A program made the position numbers and the translations under genes. Source: a virus. From it: 58,356 nt of DNA. Positions within the stretch are counted from its first letter, which is position 1. Each line of letters starts with the position of its first letter. Positions 836 to 54,475 of this stretch are shown piece by piece. The DNA lies in IMG/VR virus record IMGVR_UViG_3300029563_000007, positions 1-58,356 of that record. One strand, written 5' to 3'. Below the pieces are notes generated by a model. The model worked only from the letters and a program-made list of their open reading frames with translations. It searched no databases and was not told the DNA's origin.

Positions 836-925
836 GGAGAAGCGGCAACGATTGGCGGTGTTGCGGCAGACTGTAAATCTGTTCCCTTGCGGTAAACATT
901 GTAGGTTCAATTCCTATCTTCTCCA
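836..925 (+). tRNA. tRNA-Tyr (anticodon GTA), long variable arm
   Basis: Acceptor GGAGAAG/CTTCTCC+A, anticodon stem GCAGA/TCTGT with loop CTGTAAA, T arm GTAGG-TTCAATT-CCTAT, long extra arm as in bacterial tRNA-Tyr. Confidence 0.8.
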
Positions 926-929
926 CTTT

Positions 930-3343: not shown

Positions 3344-3613
3344 ATGGCGGAACCTTTAAGTAAATTAGCAGAAAAATGTAAAAGTTGCCCTAAATCTGAA
3401 AAATGTGACCATAAAAGAATGGAGTTATGCGCTTTAGCGGATTTGCCACCACAAAATCTTGCAAGTGCTACACAAGGTATTTTGATAGACGCGGCAATGC
3501 CGGTTTTGAGGGAAGAAATAAAAAGCCCTTTAAGTCCATTTAGGTACAAAGACGAATTAGAAAAAGCAATAAATGATTCCCATTTTGGAAACAGGTTTAT
3601 GTATGGTGCTTAG
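3344..3613 (+). CDS. hypothetical protein
   Basis: ORF track 89 aa, abuts upstream stop. Confidence 0.5.
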   Translation: MAEPLSKLAEKCKSCPKSEKCDHKRMELCALADLPPQNLASATQGILIDAAMPVLREEIKSPLSPFRYKDELEKAINDSHFGNRFMYGA

Positions 3614-3627
3614 AAAGTTGGTGGAAG

Positions 3628-3795
3628 ATGATTAAAGAAGCATTGTTGGATATTTCAAAAGGATATGTCAAAGTTTTCTTTGATGGTAACCCAGTTGATA
3701 GTATATATAGTGTAGATGACATTACAGATGATGAGTCTGGAATGAAAAAGATACAACTTACTTTTTTGGTGAAAGAAGTGCTTTTTAAAGAATAA
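3628..3795 (+). CDS. hypothetical small protein (55 aa)
   Basis: SD GGTGGA then ATG 3628; MIKEALLDISKGYVKVFFDGNPVDSIYSVDDITDDESGMKKIQLTFLVKEVLFKE. Confidence 0.4.
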   Translation: MIKEALLDISKGYVKVFFDGNPVDSIYSVDDITDDESGMKKIQLTFLVKEVLFKE

Positions 3796-3831
3796 CCGAA
3801 GAGTTTGCCAATTTTGCAAAGGGGGATTACT

Positions 3832-4011
3832 ATGAAACATCAAAAAGAATGGCACACTTGTGACAGGTGCGGAAAAGAGATAAAAGTAGGGCTGTTGTGT
3901 ATGAACTCAATTACAAGGAGTGGCATATTAAATATGACTTACGATTTATGTAATGAATGTATGGAAGATTTTGAGAGGTTTATGAGGAATGAAAACATTG
4001 ATTGTAGATGA
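3832..4011 (+). CDS. zinc-ribbon hypothetical protein
   Basis: SD AGGGGG then ATG 3832 (MKHQKEWHTCDRCGKEI...CNEC). Confidence 0.5.
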   Translation: MKHQKEWHTCDRCGKEIKVGLLCMNSITRSGILNMTYDLCNECMEDFERFMRNENIDCR

Positions 4012-4165
4012 TTTAAACATTCCACCAAGTGTTATCGCAAGTGCCATTGTCAATAGAATTCCACTTAATGAAGATAAAAATTGTCACATTGAGCATTGGA
4101 GTACCAGATGGAGAATTGAAAAATATGGGAAACATACTTGTCTGGAAGTTAAGAAATTAAGATAA
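3989..4165 (+). CDS. hypothetical small protein (58 aa)
   Basis: ATG 3989 overlapping upstream gene end; MKTLIVDDLNIPPSVIASAIVNRIPLNEDKNCHIEHWSTRWRIEKYGKHTCLEVKKLR. Confidence 0.35.
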   Translation: MKTLIVDDLNIPPSVIASAIVNRIPLNEDKNCHIEHWSTRWRIEKYGKHTCLEVKKLR

Positions 4166-4169
4166 ACAA

Positions 4170-4210
4170 TTACCGACTACAGATTGATTGTAGCTGCTGA
4201 CCTTAGAAAG
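4170..4210 (+). repeat. hairpin-containing direct repeat, copy 1 (upstream of 4249 gene)
   Basis: TTACCGACTACAGATTGATTGTAGCTGCTGACC closely matches TTGCCGGCTACAGATTGGTTGTAGTCGCTACC at 4643. Confidence 0.6.
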
Positions 4211-4248
4211 CTAAAGGCTGATAAAACATATAAAAGGAGATAGAACCT

Positions 4249-4635
4249 ATGAAACAGTTATTTGTAAGTGTGCCTATGAAAGGCAGAACAGAGGAAGAAA
4301 TCAAAGCTAGTATTCAGAAGATGAAAAAAATTGCTGAAATATACGAGGGCGAAGAATTAGAGCTTATCGACAGCTACATTGAGGATAACCCACATAAAGA
4401 CAGTAAAGAAGCTGTGTGGTATTTAGGCGAGAGCCTTAAGAAGCTGGCACAGGCTGATGTATTCATTGGAATATGTGAGAGTTATGATTGGAACGGCTGT
4501 AGCATTGAAAGAGAAACAGCGGAAAAATATGGCATTAAAACATATATGATTCCAGCACGGTATGTAATTGATGATTATAATACACTTTTGAATAGATTGC
4601 ATCCGACTTGCTGTGATGCAATGCTGACATTCTAA
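4249..4635 (+). CDS. DUF4406 / nucleoside 2-deoxyribosyltransferase-like protein
   Basis: ORF track 128 aa; MKQLFVSVPMKGRTEEE...WYLGESLKKLAQADVFIGICESYDWNGCSIERETAEKYGI pattern recalled from that fold; SD AAAGGAG. Confidence 0.45.
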   Translation: MKQLFVSVPMKGRTEEEIKASIQKMKKIAEIYEGEELELIDSYIEDNPHKDSKEAVWYLGESLKKLAQADVFIGICESYDWNGCSIERETAEKYGIKTYMIPARYVIDDYNTLLNRLHPTCCDAMLTF

Positions 4636-46498: not shown

Positions 46499-46897
46499 AT
46501 GAAGTTTTCGGGACTGACTAAGCCGGAGCTTGATGAAATAATTGAAAATGCCAATTTCACAGAAGAGGAACTAAGAATTTTCAAGTTGCTTGTGGGTAAT
46601 ATGAGCTTAGAACAGGTTAGTCAAAGACTTATGTTATCCAAAGCAACAATTTCAAGAAGAGTTAAGGATATAAAAATCAAGATAGAAAGGACTGATGACA
46701 TGGTTAAAACAATTCCTATATGGGAAAAAGTTACATTAACAGTTGAAGAAGCGTCCGAATATAGCAATATCGGAATTAATAGAATCAGCAGTATGCTTAA
46801 TGAAATTAGCTGTCCATTTGTTTTAAGAGTTGGGAATAAGAGGCTTGTTAAGCGTAAGGAGTTTGAGCACTATATAGAAAAAAGTAACGAAATATAG
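46499..46897 (+). CDS. two-domain DNA-binding protein: sigma-region-4/LuxR-like HTH plus excisionase-type HTH
   Basis: EEELRIFKLLVGNMSLEQVSQRLMLSKATISRRVKDIK and LTVEEASEYSNIGINRISSMLNE...LRVGNKRLVKRKEFEHYIE; directly upstream of int. Confidence 0.5.
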   Translation: MKFSGLTKPELDEIIENANFTEEELRIFKLLVGNMSLEQVSQRLMLSKATISRRVKDIKIKIERTDDMVKTIPIWEKVTLTVEEASEYSNIGINRISSMLNEISCPFVLRVGNKRLVKRKEFEHYIEKSNEI

Positions 46898-46979: not shown

Positions 46980-48167
46980 ATGGGAAAAGATTTAAAAGGT
47001 AAAGAACTAGGTGTAGGATTGTCGCAGCGAAAGGACGGTGTGTATCAAGGGAGATATAAAGATAGATTTAATAAGATTAAATATATTTATGGCACAAAGT
47101 TATCAGAAGTTAAAAAAGAATTGGCTGTTGCAATAGCAGAAAATATTCAATTTACAAGCATTAGAGATGATATTAAGCTGGACGATTGGTTTAATCGTTG
47201 GATAGAAGTGTACAAAAAGAAAAGTGTACGCCCTAATACCCTTAGAGAATACACTCACATATACAATAAAAATATATCACCTTTTTTAGGAAATCGCAAC
47301 ATAAATTCCTTTGTTAAATCAGATATTCAAACACTAATTGATAAAATAGCTGATGACAATTATAAATATGAACGGCAGAACAAGATTAAGGTTATACTTA
47401 ATGATATGTTCAGTAGAGCAATAGAAGATGACTTAATGATTAAAAATCCAGCAAAAGGTGTAAAGCTTAGGGCTGATAAAGAACTTAAAGCTTTCACACT
47501 AACAGCAAAACAACAGATAGAGTTTTTAGAAGCAAGTAAAGGGACATTTTACGATAATTTGTATAATGTGGCAGTTAATACAGGCTTGCGGCCAGGGGAA
47601 TTGTTTGCACTTACACCTAATGATATACACTTAGATGAGGGGTATATTGATGTTAATAAGACACTTGTGTATCAAAAATACCTTGATGATAAGTGCAAAA
47701 CTTTTCACATTGAGCCGCCTAAAACCAAACAGAGTTATAGACAAGTACCTATTAACAGCGAATGCATTAAATATCTTGAAAAGCAGTTCGAATTAAAGGA
47801 TATTGTAAAGTGCAAAAGACCTAAAGAGCAGAACAATTATTTGTTTGTGACAAGTTATAACACGCCTCTCAATTCGCAGATTTATTCAGATTCAATTAAA
47901 GCTATTGTTAAGCAGATAAATCTTGCAAGAAGTTTTGATAACGAATTTCCTGTGTTTAGTGGACATACTTTAAGACATACTTTTGCTACAAGATGTTTTG
48001 AAGCAGGTGTGCAGGCAAAAGTTGTTCAATCATATTTAGGTCATGCAACTCTTAAAATGACAATGGATTTATATACACATGTAACAGAAGAAAGAGCGGC
48101 AGTAGATATTGAAAGAATTGTGAAAGACAAGGACAACATTGTTGATTTTAAGAAAAGTGCTGTGTAG
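46980..48167 (+). CDS. int: tyrosine integrase (Tn916-Int-like, with N-terminal arm-binding domain)
   Basis: 395 aa; N-terminus ...VGLSQRKDGVYQGRYKDRFNK..; catalytic GLRPGE, HTLRHTFAT, LGHATLKMTMDLYTH. Confidence 0.9.
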   Translation: MGKDLKGKELGVGLSQRKDGVYQGRYKDRFNKIKYIYGTKLSEVKKELAVAIAENIQFTSIRDDIKLDDWFNRWIEVYKKKSVRPNTLREYTHIYNKNISPFLGNRNINSFVKSDIQTLIDKIADDNYKYERQNKIKVILNDMFSRAIEDDLMIKNPAKGVKLRADKELKAFTLTAKQQIEFLEASKGTFYDNLYNVAVNTGLRPGELFALTPNDIHLDEGYIDVNKTLVYQKYLDDKCKTFHIEPPKTKQSYRQVPINSECIKYLEKQFELKDIVKCKRPKEQNNYLFVTSYNTPLNSQIYSDSIKAIVKQINLARSFDNEFPVFSGHTLRHTFATRCFEAGVQAKVVQSYLGHATLKMTMDLYTHVTEERAAVDIERIVKDKDNIVDFKKSAV

Positions 48168-52026: not shown

Positions 52027-52039
52027 CGCATTCAATACG

Positions 52040-52305
52040 CCCCCAGGTATGGCATTTTGTATTCGCAATTTCGATTTTGACAATTCCCAAAATTTGGTCC
52101 AGATTTCGTTCAAATCCTACTTAAAAATTGGAAAAATTTCTCCACAAATTTTATTGCTAAAAATTTTGATACCCCCGTCATATGCAATTTTGGAATCCAA
52201 AAATCGGTTACGCAGAATTTCAATTTTTGCTCCCGATTTCGTTCAGATTTGCCCTGAAAAATTGATGAAAAACTTCAACAGATTAAAGTGCATTATATAA
52301 ACTTG
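52040..52305. repeat. two degenerate ~132-bp tandem repeats rich in phased A/T tracts
   Basis: Both units start CCCCC(A/G).. (52040, 52172) and share GCAATTT.., GATTTCGTTCA(A/G)AT (52102, 52235) and ..AAAAATTG..AAAAA..TTC. Confidence 0.55.
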
Positions 52306-52424
52306 ACTGGCTGTGGTTCGCGTTTATTTTGGCGTTGTGGCTTTGTGATTTGCCCTGTACGGCGGTTTTATTGTGTCGGTGTAGAACTTATAAGCCTACA
52401 GAACAAAACAGCCTTAAAACGCCT

Positions 52425-52453
52425 TTGAAAGCGTTGTATAAAATGGGTATAAT
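52425..52453 (+). promoter_or_regulatory. near-consensus sigma-70 promoter with no ORF downstream
   Basis: TTGAAA 52425-30, 17-nt spacer, TATAAT 52448-53. Confidence 0.55.
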
Positions 52454-52600
52454 ATACCCTTGAAAGTTGTGGAAGCTGTTGTCAGTTCTGGAGAATTCAA
52501 CAGAACGCACGCCGCTCCAACCGGGTACACTTGTACACCTAAAAAGCGCAAAAGCCTTATATATAAGCATAGCATTATTATATTAATTTTTCAAGGTACG

Positions 52601-52629
52601 CAAAGAAAAGCATATAAAAATATATGCTT
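52601..52629 (-). terminator. rho-independent terminator (minus strand)
   Basis: Minus strand AAGCAUAUA-UUUU-UAUAUGCUU followed by UUCUUUG. Confidence 0.6.
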
Positions 52630-52631
52630 AA

Positions 52632-52673
52632 TGCTTGCGGCTGGAATCGAACCAACCAGAACCCACAGCAAGC
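52632..52673 (-). ncRNA. tRNA-like acceptor/T-arm minihelix B
   Basis: Minus strand GCUUGCU-GUGGGUUCU-GUUGG-UUCGAUU-CCAGC-CGCAAGC-A; 6 of 7 acceptor pairs; no D or anticodon arm. Confidence 0.5.
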
Positions 52674-52674
52674 C

Positions 52675-52700
52675 AAAAAGGGCGCAGATTGTACGCCCTT
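52675..52700 (-). terminator. rho-independent terminator (minus strand) after the 52699 gene
   Basis: Minus strand GGGCG-UACAAUCUG-CGCCC then UUUUU. Confidence 0.6.
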
Positions 52701-52980
52701 AATCATTGAGAAAATTATAAATTTTTTCATTCTGTTTGTTTTCCTTGAACAAATAAAATGCTTCTAGCCTGTTAGGCTTTTTCAATAATTTTTTAACATC
52801 ATTTTCGCTGTCGTGCTCAATCGAGCAGAAAATCATAAATACACAACATTTTATTTTTTTAATCTCTTCGCTGTCAACTCTAGCAAAATCAAAAAAGTTT
52901 TTGATAGCGTTCTTGTATGCTTTTTCACAAGCTGGAATGGTCTTGTATGGTAAGTCTTTTGTATACCATTTTTTATTCAT
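52699..52980 (-). CDS. hypothetical protein
   Basis: 93 aa, minus-strand SD GGAGG. Confidence 0.55.
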   Translation of the reverse strand: MNKKWYTKDLPYKTIPACEKAYKNAIKNFFDFARVDSEEIKKIKCCVFMIFCSIEHDSENDVKKLLKKPNRLEAFYLFKENKQNEKIYNFLND

Positions 52981-53025
52981 TGTTATACCTCCATATTTTC
53001 ATTTTCCCCCTGACATCAGGGTAAA

Positions 53026-53066
53026 AGCAAGCCGGGGAATCGAACCCCGGAAACGCCAGCCTTGCT
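53026..53066 (-). ncRNA. tRNA-like acceptor/T-arm minihelix C
   Basis: Minus strand AGCAAG-GCUGGCGUUU-CCGGGG-UUCGAUU-CCCCGG-CUUGCU; its first two nt are the AG of the upstream UAG stop. Confidence 0.55.
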
Positions 53067-53298
53067 AATTTGCATAATAAAAATCAAAAACTTCTTTTCT
53101 TTCGGCTTGTCGCATTGCAAGAACACGCTCGAAAGCTCTTTTTACTAAAGGGAGAACATTTGCGCCCGATTTAATTGATTTCGCAATAGCAAGCATCTCT
53201 TCCGACGTCTTGTCGTAGATATAGCTAATAGCATTGTCAAAAGTCTCCTCCGAAATTTTTAATTCTTTCAAATCCTGTTGATATGTTTTAAATTCCAT
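53065..53298 (-). CDS. hypothetical protein
   Basis: 77 aa ORF track. Confidence 0.55.
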   Translation of the reverse strand: MEFKTYQQDLKELKISEETFDNAISYIYDKTSEEMLAIAKSIKSGANVLPLVKRAFERVLAMRQAERKEVFDFYYAN

Positions 53299-53515: not shown

Positions 53516-53695
53516 CTATGCGTTTGCTTCTGCTCTTAAAATCTCAATGCATTCTTTTTTCGTGTGCTCTCCGTAAAATTTTATAGGCTTATGAAATGCC
53601 TTTGCAAGGGCAAAATTTTCTTGATTTTTTAAAAATAAATCACGGATTTCTAAAAATGTCTTTTTGTGGCTTTCATACTGTTCTTTTTTTGTCAT
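53516..53695 (-). CDS. hypothetical 59-aa protein
   Basis: MTKKEQYESHKKTFLEIRDLFLKNQENFALAKAFHKPIKFYGEHTKKECIEILRAEANA; SD-like GGAUGG upstream. Confidence 0.4.
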   Translation of the reverse strand: MTKKEQYESHKKTFLEIRDLFLKNQENFALAKAFHKPIKFYGEHTKKECIEILRAEANA

Positions 53696-53723
53696 AATAA
53701 TTAACCATCCTTTCTTTTTGCTT

Positions 53724-53782
53724 GTCTCATCAGTGGCAAGGTTGCAACCCTACACCAGACCGCCGGGCGGCGGTTTCGACTA
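53724..53782 (-). ncRNA. hammerhead self-cleaving ribozyme, type II topology (candidate)
   Basis: Minus strand GUC-GAAA-CCGCC(GCCC)GGCGG-UC|UGGUGUAGGGU(UGCA)ACCUUGCCA-CUGAUGA-GAC; all invariant core nucleotides in the canonical order. Confidence 0.7.
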
Positions 53783-53929
53783 TATCTTTATGAACATTTC
53801 CCAAGGTGCTATAATAATACCGCCTTTACAATCGGCGTATATTATTACTTCCCCATTTTTGGTTATTTCGTACTTTTTAAAAGTACATTCTATCTCATTG
53901 CCGTAAATAATCTTGTCGCCTATTTTCAT
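53780..53929 (-). CDS. hypothetical 49-aa protein
   Basis: SD GGAGGG then ATG; MKIGDKIIYGNEIECTFKKYEITKNGEVIIYADCKGGIIIAPWEMFIKI. Confidence 0.4.
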   Translation of the reverse strand: MKIGDKIIYGNEIECTFKKYEITKNGEVIIYADCKGGIIIAPWEMFIKI

Positions 53930-54431: not shown

Positions 54432-54475
54432 ATAATAACACCTTTTAAGGTGTATGTCAACACCTTTTAAGATGT
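54432..54475 (-). promoter_or_regulatory. leftward promoter with palindromic operators
   Basis: Minus strand TTGACA (rc 54455-60), 17 nt, TATTAT (rc 54432-37). ACACCTTTTAAGGTGT (54438-53) fills the spacer; near-copy ACACCTTTTAAGATGT at 54460-75. Confidence 0.6.

Follow-up and report, generated by a model that had tools for sequence, protein, structure and literature searches.

Multiple hammerhead ribozymes flank single genes of non-constant identity in prophages, including that of Clostridium scindens (Perreault et al. 2011; PMC3088659). In vitro these array hammerheads undergo cleavage, and it has been proposed that they process long phage transcripts (PMC3088659). Here we describe a locus of the same kind, and probably the same, in which small variable genes are bounded by cleavage elements. 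It lies in IMG/VR virus record IMGVR_UViG_3300029563_000007, positions 1 to 58,356; by 'the window' we mean this whole stretch of 58,356 nucleotides (nt). The element in question, which we call C, occupies positions 53026-53066 on the minus strand. It is a conserved mimic of the top half of a transfer RNA (tRNA) that occurs at intercistronic junctions and is interchangeable there with hammerheads. On balance, C probably serves as an intercistronic RNA-cleavage module that uses the host enzymes RNase Z and RNase P. Unlike the elements of the Perreault arrays, C is not a ribozyme motif and would depend on those enzymes. Its predicted ends differ accordingly in kind: 5'-phosphate and 3'-hydroxyl for C, as against 5'-hydroxyl and 2',3'-cyclic phosphate for hammerheads. 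Hammerhead products begin with the 5'-hydroxyl directly at stem I, without a separate hairpin, whereas C is followed by a hairpin.

In mitochondria, where tRNAs punctuate transcripts, and at the t-elements of plant mitochondria, RNase P and RNase Z define the ends of messenger RNAs (mRNAs). There, as at C, a tRNA-like structure abuts coding regions, and the junction leaves stop codons truncated. Those are systems of organelles, in which full tRNAs or larger t-elements are the rule, whereas C belongs to a bacterial or phage setting and is minimal, at 41 nt; that setting also lacks polyadenylation by which a truncated stop could be restored. The mascRNA of MALAT1 and its MEN-beta counterpart are tRNA-like modules that end a longer transcript. 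They are cut by RNase P and RNase Z and CCA-tailed, and they give the upstream RNA a mature 3' end; unlike C, mascRNA is cloverleaf-like, ~60 nt long and found in vertebrate nuclei. Among phages, the early cistrons of T7 are separated by RNase III, which cuts structured intercistronic sites and leaves protective hairpins. At C, too, a host endonuclease would cut an intercistronic site in phage mRNA, but the enzyme and the RNA fold are different.

The minimal architecture of C is that of the acceptor/T-stem-loop model substrates of McClain, Guerrier-Takada and Altman, hairpins that bacterial RNase P cleaves efficiently at the canonical site (PMC11143913); these, unlike C, are synthetic. Phages also furnish natural non-tRNA substrates of RNase P, namely the P1/P7 C4 RNA precursor and phi80 M3 RNA (PMC11143913), but these are precursors of antisense or small RNAs and not intercistronic punctuation like C. 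Finally, Kienbeck et al. (2024) described theta ribozymes, which resemble that of hepatitis delta virus (HDV), beside viral tRNAs in gut phages (PMC10879173). In both cases gut Caudoviricetes pair tRNA-shaped RNAs with RNA-cleavage modules, and relatives of the window carry suppressor tRNAs. In the theta system, however, the ribozyme trims a real tRNA, whereas at C the trimmed RNA would be an mRNA, and the cutting would fall to host enzymes drawn in by a tRNA mimic. We found no report in the literature of tRNA mimics in hammerhead arrays or of tRNA-like minihelices in phage operons.

Structure and class of element C

C separates two cistrons, open reading frames (ORFs) ORF77 and ORF93. Its parts and immediate surroundings are these (SD, Shine-Dalgarno sequence; bp, base pairs):

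53065-53298, minus: ORF77, the upstream cistron; its UAG stop (53065-53067) covers the first two bases of the acceptor stem
53026-53066, minus: minihelix C, with 6-bp acceptor-like stem, 10-nt linker, 6-bp T stem and 7-nt loop
53061-53066, minus: 5' acceptor strand
53051-53060, minus: linker
53045-53050 with 53032-53037, minus: T stem
53038-53044, minus: T loop, UUCGAUU
53026-53031, minus: 3' acceptor strand
53025, minus: discriminator U
between 53067 and 53066, minus: predicted RNase P cut
between 53025 and 53024, minus: predicted RNase Z cut
53008-53021, minus: small hairpin CCCUG-AUGU-CAGGG, 4 nt past the acceptor 3' end of C
52988-52992 and 52978-52980, minus: SD (GGAGG) and ATG of ORF93, with an A-rich spacer between hairpin and SD
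52699-52980, minus: ORF93, the downstream cistron

The minus-strand RNA from 53067 to 53025 reads U-AGCAAG-GCUGGCGUUU-CCGGGG-UUCGAUU-CCCCGG-CUUGCU-U. The two 3' strands are contiguous and the 12 bp stack directly, in the fashion of tRNA. An earlier reading of this DNA (the original prediction) had given exactly this sequence, with its 6-bp stem, 10-nt linker, T-loop-capped 6-bp stem and direct stacking, and the computed fold agrees: for the isolated 43-nt RNA the proposed structure is both the minimum free energy (MFE) structure, at -16.9 kcal/mol, and the centroid. The fusion to the ORF77 stop, and the small hairpin followed by the SD of the next cistron, are likewise where that reading placed them, and the fusion to a stop is kept across unrelated upstream genes.

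The T arm of C is that of a tRNA, with a U54-U55-C56-R57-A58 loop, a G53-C61 closing pair and a stack of 12 bp, the 7+5 of tRNA. In all variants the loop conforms to UUYRANU and two G-C pairs close it. Uninterrupted stacks of 12 bp occur in 39 of the 61 C variants and in 25 of the 26 variants of its sister element B, described below; the rest of these 87 have stacks of 13-14 bp, save one C variant with 11 bp. CCA is encoded by none of the elements, nearly all of which have U at position 74. CCA-less tRNA precursors follow the RNase Z route in B. subtilis. Position N-1 is U in 52/61 C variants. C therefore has the coaxial acceptor/T-arm helix, the T loop, the place at a transcript junction and the lack of CCA that are expected of a tRNA-like processing element.

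It is not a canonical tRNA gene. The only ARAGORN tRNAs of the window lie at 400-1013, the Rfam tRNA model has no match at 53026-53066 even at an expect value (E) of up to 10, and only 10 nt separate the 5' acceptor strand from the T stem, where a cloverleaf has its D and anticodon arms. In this respect the original prediction, an acceptor/T-arm minihelix rather than a tRNA gene, stands. The Rfam mascRNA-menRNA model (RF01684) has a match that spans exactly 53026-53066, at 17.9 bits (E = 1.8); membership of that family is rejected, since its gathering threshold is 42.5 bits. Other sub-threshold Rfam matches at C are to the T arm of transfer-messenger RNA (tmRNA). The hammerhead, twister, twister-sister, pistol, hatchet and HDV-like models have no match at C with E up to 10, and Rfam gave no theta/HDV-like ribozyme match.

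C is also not the attachment-site (att) core of a host tRNA, a possibility that had been discounted from the start and that a genome-wide exact search and the position of the integrase now rule out. The 21-mer GGTTCGATTCCCCGGCTTGCT, the 3' half of C, occurs five times in a collection of one genome for each of 185,579 species. Counting exact matches only, none of the five lies inside an ARAGORN tRNA, and four of them are the same minihelix in phage-like contigs. The integrase and Xis genes are ~5 kb from C and so are not adjacent to it, and C, unlike a tRNA 3' fragment, has a complementary 5' strand. An intrinsic terminator was considered and rejected as well: in the window the T hairpin is followed by CUUGCUUUUA, which a terminator scan flags, but the U run is not conserved, and relatives have CUACC, CUCGCC, UUACC or AAAAUA after C, most without a U run.

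The T arm of C has an exact match of 20 nt (CCGGGGUUCGAUUCCCCGG-like) in the unrelated Mycobacterium phages Predator, Cuke and Fowlmouth (e.g. NC_011039.1, 37885-37904). These matches lie where no feature is annotated, and could be unannotated tRNA-like elements.

Sister elements and conservation

A scan of the window for T-loop hairpins (loop TTYRANY, with a T stem and a directly stacked acceptor stem each no shorter than 6 bp) finds three outside real tRNAs, all of one architecture: C and two sisters, A and B. Among 300 dinucleotide shuffles of the window the mean number of such elements is 0.06 and the maximum 1, so that the three present exceed what chance would give. A fourth type, D, occurs in relatives. 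The sisters, and the hairpins next to B, are:

52633-52673, minus: minihelix B, GCUUGC-10 nt-GGUUGG-UUCGAUU-CCAGCC-GCAAGC; the architecture of C with other stem sequences
1088-1130, plus: minihelix A, UUGCUAU-10 nt-GUAAGG-UUCGAUU-CCUUAC-AUAGCAA; 3' of the phage tRNA cluster
relatives only: minihelix D, ATCCGTT-10 nt-GCAGGG-UUCGAAU-CCCUGC-GACGGAU
52678-52700, minus: terminator-like GC hairpin and U run, between the ORF93 stop and B
52608-52629, minus: AU-rich hairpin AAGCAUAUA-UUUU-UAUAUGCUU, 3 nt past the 3' end of B

A, B, C and D have no stem sequence in common, yet they superimpose exactly. Across the types 98-100% of cells are paired and 10 of the 12 pairs are changed on both sides; the set was found partly by the structure-based scan or by the covariance model itself, and the covariation is between paralogous types. 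That model, built from 17 sequences, scores the three minihelices of the window at 60, 52 and 48 bits and the next match at 12.8; A, B and C are among its seeds, so the scores are not independent evidence. The compensatory change that the original prediction had asked of the two stems is seen mainly among the paralogous types A, B and D and is weak within C, whose stems are nearly invariant.

Independent evidence for the structure of C comes from a search of public viral contigs with its 3' half only, because the relatives so recovered all carry the complementary 5' strand; none of them lies inside an ARAGORN tRNA. Among C relatives at large the complementary strand is present in nearly all, the exception being the broken hybrid of L012 and L178 (L numbers denote loci of relatives). 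There, at L012 2905-2950 and in L178, the 5' half of C has been joined to another 3' half, one that forms a different hairpin.

We compared C across 72-91 distinct contexts in related, Lachnospiraceae-type gut phages. Its stems, AGCAAG/CUUGCU and CCGGGG/CCCCGG, hardly vary. Where one side alone has changed, the change is mostly compatible with a G-U pair (GGCAAG, AGUAAG, CUGGGG); the remaining changes insert or swap a pair (CCGGAGG/CCUCCGG, CCCGGG/CCCGGG). The linker is free in sequence and in length, with 9-15 nt in these contexts and 6-15 nt at the widest. The GG that the original prediction singled out is present in the window, but only 35 of 44 distinct linkers have it and it is not universal. 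In one relative, L228, whose proteins are ~60% identical, the stems and loop are unchanged and the linker is 15 nt; because the stems are the same at this distance while the linker differs in length and sequence, selection appears to act on C. We infer that C is a portable, transcribed tRNA mimic, which combines an acceptor/T-arm stack of 12 bp with a canonical T loop and a 10-nt bulge that is dispensable.

C is bordered by at least seven unrelated upstream and at least 17 unrelated downstream ORF families, in ~40 combinations, and certain features of the junction recur. The upstream ORF stops 0-6 nt before the stem of C in every context, either by a UAG or UAA that overlaps the stem or by the UAA within a conserved AUAAUUAGCAAG. 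Ahead of C, two or three frames are closed by stops, e.g. in TAATTAATAATTAG. A further hairpin begins 3-4 nt past the 3' end of the element in 44 of 59 C contexts, 47 of 51 B contexts and one of four D contexts; in the other three D contexts it begins at 2 nt. The stems of this downstream hairpin vary (CCCGG/CCGGG, CCUC/GAGG, GUCCU/AGGGA, UGCCA/UGGCA and others), and in relatives it is followed by the A-rich spacer, GGAGG and the start codon. B is present, by pattern, at 116 loci of relatives, and in other phages it is succeeded by a hairpin, an SD and a gene.

Several smaller observations concern these elements. The octamer GGCUUGCU is common to the 3' end of C (53026-53033) and the 5' end of B (52668-52675) on the minus strand, so that the ORF93 cassette lies between the copies of a short direct repeat; B and C each have acceptor strands that are nearly the reverse complement of the other's. 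Beside B lies an ORF-poor stretch of ~600 nt between convergent units (52030-52630), which is conserved in relatives. A promoter-like site with an extended -10 (52594-52566, minus) and a terminator-like hairpin (52459-52445, minus) in this stretch would yield a small RNA (sRNA) of ~115 nt. The stretch has no Rfam match, and a search of it for repeats and iterons gave none that convinced. A further type of minihelix, AGCUAA-13 nt-UAGCCGG-UUCGAUU-CCGACUA-UUAGCU, follows an ORF93 homologue at L013 3290-3345.

The operon, its hammerheads and the phage

C belongs to a leftward operon of the window in which we also find a candidate hammerhead:

54432-54460, minus: promoter-like TTGACA-17-TATTAT with TG, at the head of the operon
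53716-53781, minus: type II hammerhead candidate, between ORF49 (53780-53929) and ORF59 (53516-53695)
Order: promoter - ORF126 - ORF49 - [hammerhead] - ORF59 - ORF58 - ORF77 - [C] - ORF93 - terminator-like hairpin - [B] - hairpin

The candidate scores 31.3 bits, against an Rfam threshold of 37, with a local E of 3.7e-4. Its core is intact (GAAA, GUC, CUGAUGA), it folds into a three-way junction with a predicted cut between 53758 and 53757, and relatives carry homologous copies that score above the threshold. At its 5' edge it is fused to the UAG of ORF49, in the way that C is fused to that of ORF77.

In relatives without a scanned C, a hammerhead core (GAAAC...GUC...CUGAUGA) was noticed after the ORF77 homologue. 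Rfam Hammerhead_II exceeds its curated threshold in L002, L004-L007, L228, L229 and L232, always in the operon and on the strand of C; in L006 two hammerheads occupy successive intergenic gaps. A custom hammerhead finder recovered most of the Rfam matches and missed L232. Along the operon the order across loci is always hammerhead, C, (D), B, and some relatives have the arrangement C-gene-D-gene-B. The two kinds of element exchange places: C stands after the ORF77 family in the window, L008 and L002, and a hammerhead takes that place in L004, L007, L179 and L224. In all, there are two gene families upstream and two downstream that adjoin a hammerhead in some cases and C in others. With hammerheads, variable gene families and a temperate phage, the locus has all that marks a ribozyme-punctuated prophage array.

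On the reverse strand of L228 (~3520-4500) the order is hammerhead-gene-hammerhead-gene-C-like element, the last with the stems and loop of C in the window. This contig is binned with a metagenome-assembled genome (MAG) of a Treponema sp.; it looks like a phage fragment, and the assignment to Treponema may be a binning artefact. The small proteins that flank the elements gave nothing convincing against Pfam, PHROGs, PADLOC and NCBIfam, with two matches, of E 0.003 and 0.005, far below cut-offs.

Minihelix A occupies a different part of the window. Its neighbourhood, and the recombination genes found elsewhere in the window, are as follows:

1134-1199, plus: int-alpA-like RNA (Rfam, 53.8 bits); a long hairpin 3 nt past the 3' end of A
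1188-2318, plus: O-like replication initiator gene, with the int-alpA-like RNA upstream
46980-48167: Tn916-type tyrosine integrase
46499-46897: Xis

The slot directly 5' of the int-alpA-like RNA is polymorphic (e.g. L021, 7034-7160). Most relatives have a suppressor tRNA in it, with anticodon UUA or UCA; some have odd tRNA 3' fragments, and the window has minihelix A. That a minihelix stands in for a full suppressor tRNA before the same hairpin RNA supports the processing by host enzymes that is proposed below. The suppressor tRNAs hint at stop-codon recoding in part of the phage family. ORF 1188-2318 was considered as an integrase beside A and rejected, being the O-like replication initiator. 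At 836-926 (plus) ARAGORN calls a tRNA-Tyr(GUA) of 91 nt, whose variable arm is long and whose D region is unusual; the Rfam tRNA model does not report it at its gathering threshold.

The window as a whole is a temperate tailed phage of ~58 kb and 36% G+C, which encodes terminase, a GH25 lysin, RecT and SSB. A pooled Pfam scan of 50 window proteins gave a match to Lactamase_B, the metallo-beta-lactamase fold of RNase Z and RNase J (E = 3.9e-7), which was not located among the 30 of the 50 ORFs rescanned, and the idea of a phage-encoded enzyme like RNase Z or RNase J was set aside. By blastn the region has no homologues in sequenced phage isolates. In IMG/VR its relatives number well over a hundred: 188 stretches match the replication-initiator query and 116 the B pattern. 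Samples with identifiers in the style of the Human Microbiome Project (HMP) are included, and C is found also in assemblies of Lachnospiraceae and of Clostridium sp. CAG:510. The ORF93 protein is indexed in 132 blocks of an assembly collection; the eight places listed are all metagenome contigs, and one of these bears a human-gut label. Because one contig with ORF93 is 398 kb long, the phage exists as a prophage.

Proposed processing, alternatives and significance

We propose that the tRNA-maturation endonucleases of the host recognise the minihelix. RNase Z would cut after the discriminator, between 53025 and 53024, and the downstream mRNA would then begin 2-3 nt ahead of the small hairpin, which would shield its 5'-monophosphate end. 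In Firmicutes, a 5'-monophosphate placed close ahead of a hairpin protects mRNAs from RNase J1. RNase P may cut in addition, between 53067 and 53066. Two outcomes can be envisaged: in one the minihelix stays on the upstream message as a 3' cap, and in the other a mini-tRNA of ~42 nt is released and CCA-tailed. Since the canonical RNase P cut would destroy the stop codon in roughly one-quarter of contexts, we favour the version with a 3'-side cut and a 3'-end cap; alternatively, 5' cleavage may be tolerated or regulatory. Because hammerheads in equivalent slots replace C after the same gene family, a processing role is supported, and C would be functionally the host-enzyme-dependent equivalent of the hammerheads in its operon. 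As judged from sequence comparisons, the case that C has a role in mRNA processing or 3'-end stabilisation is strong but indirect.

Several points weigh against this proposal. The folding z-score of C is -1.2, and z-scores overall, at -1.1 to -2.3, are unremarkable; we judge them unhelpful for short GC-rich RNAs of this kind. When longer flanks are added, the MFE structure of the C region retains the T hairpin only. Since the z-score is modest and the flanked MFE structure loses the acceptor stem, the case for C rests on more than thermodynamics. The stems of C hardly covary although the flanks diverge strongly, so that the constraint may be sequence-specific, or the module may have spread by recombination, rather than structure alone being conserved. 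The strand-of-selection count for the sense strand is 22 G-U against 14 A-C cells, and some B variants have A-C mismatches in the T stem. B also sits downstream of a terminator-like hairpin and may therefore often be untranscribed. In L212 the same junction occurs with nothing after the ORF77 family, and in L202 it is filled by a plain GC hairpin, from which C is evidently dispensable at some junctions. Lastly, the RNase P cut would remove the stop of ORF77 in the window and the upstream stop in about 20 of 72 contexts.

The alternative that survives best is that C is a mosaic joint at the level of DNA: a recombination hot spot of ~45 bp, serving as portable homology or as a recombinase core with inverted 6-bp arms around a 7-bp spacer. 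On either version cassettes would be shuffled through it and RNA structure would be incidental. The many combinations of unrelated families (at least seven upstream, 17 downstream, ~40 in all) are what such a joint would produce, as are the stops in two or three frames, the invariant rather than covarying stems and the hybrid with the 5' half of C on another 3' half, and the phage does encode a tyrosine integrase. That integrase, however, is Tn916-type and 5 kb off, and a recombinase needs none of the T-loop consensus, G-C closing pairs and 12-bp stack that A, B, C and D keep without sharing arms. The linker evolves freely while both strands of the stems are kept, the downstream hairpin and SD are a design at the level of the transcript, and hammerheads, which act on RNA, fill the same slots. 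We think a mosaic joint unlikely as the whole explanation. It probably holds alongside host-enzyme cleavage rather than instead of it, in that an RNA module can double as homology for shuffling.

Less likely again is that C works uncleaved, by blocking exonucleases or by insulating or uncoupling the translation of neighbouring cistrons. This role would be in keeping with a T hairpin, stable and GC-rich, right after the stop codon, with the fusion of that codon to the stem and with the plain hairpins in the same slot of some relatives. A plain hairpin would then suffice, however, which would not explain why the T-loop consensus is strict, the stack 12 bp long and CCA absent, and the equivalence with self-cleaving ribozymes points to cleavage.

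If cleavage does occur, its point might be the product. An excised, CCA-tailed mini-tRNA of ~42 nt might act in trans, with the separation of cistrons as a by-product: as a decoy or sponge for enzymes of the acceptor end (defence toxins, nucleotidyltransferases, synthetases), as a substrate of aminoacylation, or, more generally, as an effector made early from an accessory-gene operon. This we regard as quite improbable. The stem sequences of the four types are wholly different, and one partner that reads a specific sequence is hard to reconcile with this; none of the known identity elements can be seen, e.g. no G3:U70; and hammerheads, with which the elements swap, release no such RNA, which argues that it is the cut that matters. 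The near-invariant stems of type C across diverged flanks do suggest a sequence-specific partner, on this view a protein, and the three minihelix copies per genome and the small, fast-shuffling accessory genes of the operon also fit an effector.

That C is a new class of self-cleaving ribozyme, like the classes found near hammerheads, is very improbable. Its genomic slots are those of hammerheads, and unrelated ribozyme classes share such contexts (PMC6765202), but the only conserved unpaired bases are those of the tRNA T loop, the variable linker leaves no plausible catalytic core, and no Rfam ribozyme family matches with E up to 10. Just as improbable is a functionless remnant (a decayed tRNA pseudogene, an intrinsic terminator or an att relic), which the terminator-scan flag at CUUGCUUUUA and the tRNA 3' fragments in the A slot of some relatives might suggest, but which fails because most relatives have no U run after C, no host tRNA matches, and an architecture with its complementary 5' strand retained repeatedly and independently is not decay.

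Cleavage by host RNase Z and RNase P would bear on a wider question, namely what hammerhead and twister ribozymes, which number hundreds in the gene arrays of bacteria and prophages, do there. According to one review, what underlies the gene associations of bacterial ribozymes is undetermined, and the contexts shared by unrelated classes imply a need for cleavage (PMC6765202). With a ribozyme site and putative host-RNase sites side by side, this common human-gut prophage operon offers a simple experimental handle. The junction would also be a reusable design for synthetic operons in Firmicutes: stop codon, 12-bp minihelix, 3 nt, small hairpin, SD. If the proposal is true, mitochondrial tRNA punctuation and the engineered arrays of tRNAs and guide RNAs (gRNAs) would have in C their first natural counterpart from bacteria or phages. 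The comparisons made here support the placing of a tRNA-like processing signal in a ribozyme-punctuated prophage operon, and would mean, if cleavage occurs as proposed, that selection in these arrays acts on the scission of the transcript between cistrons, and not on ribozyme chemistry or the nature of the end groups.

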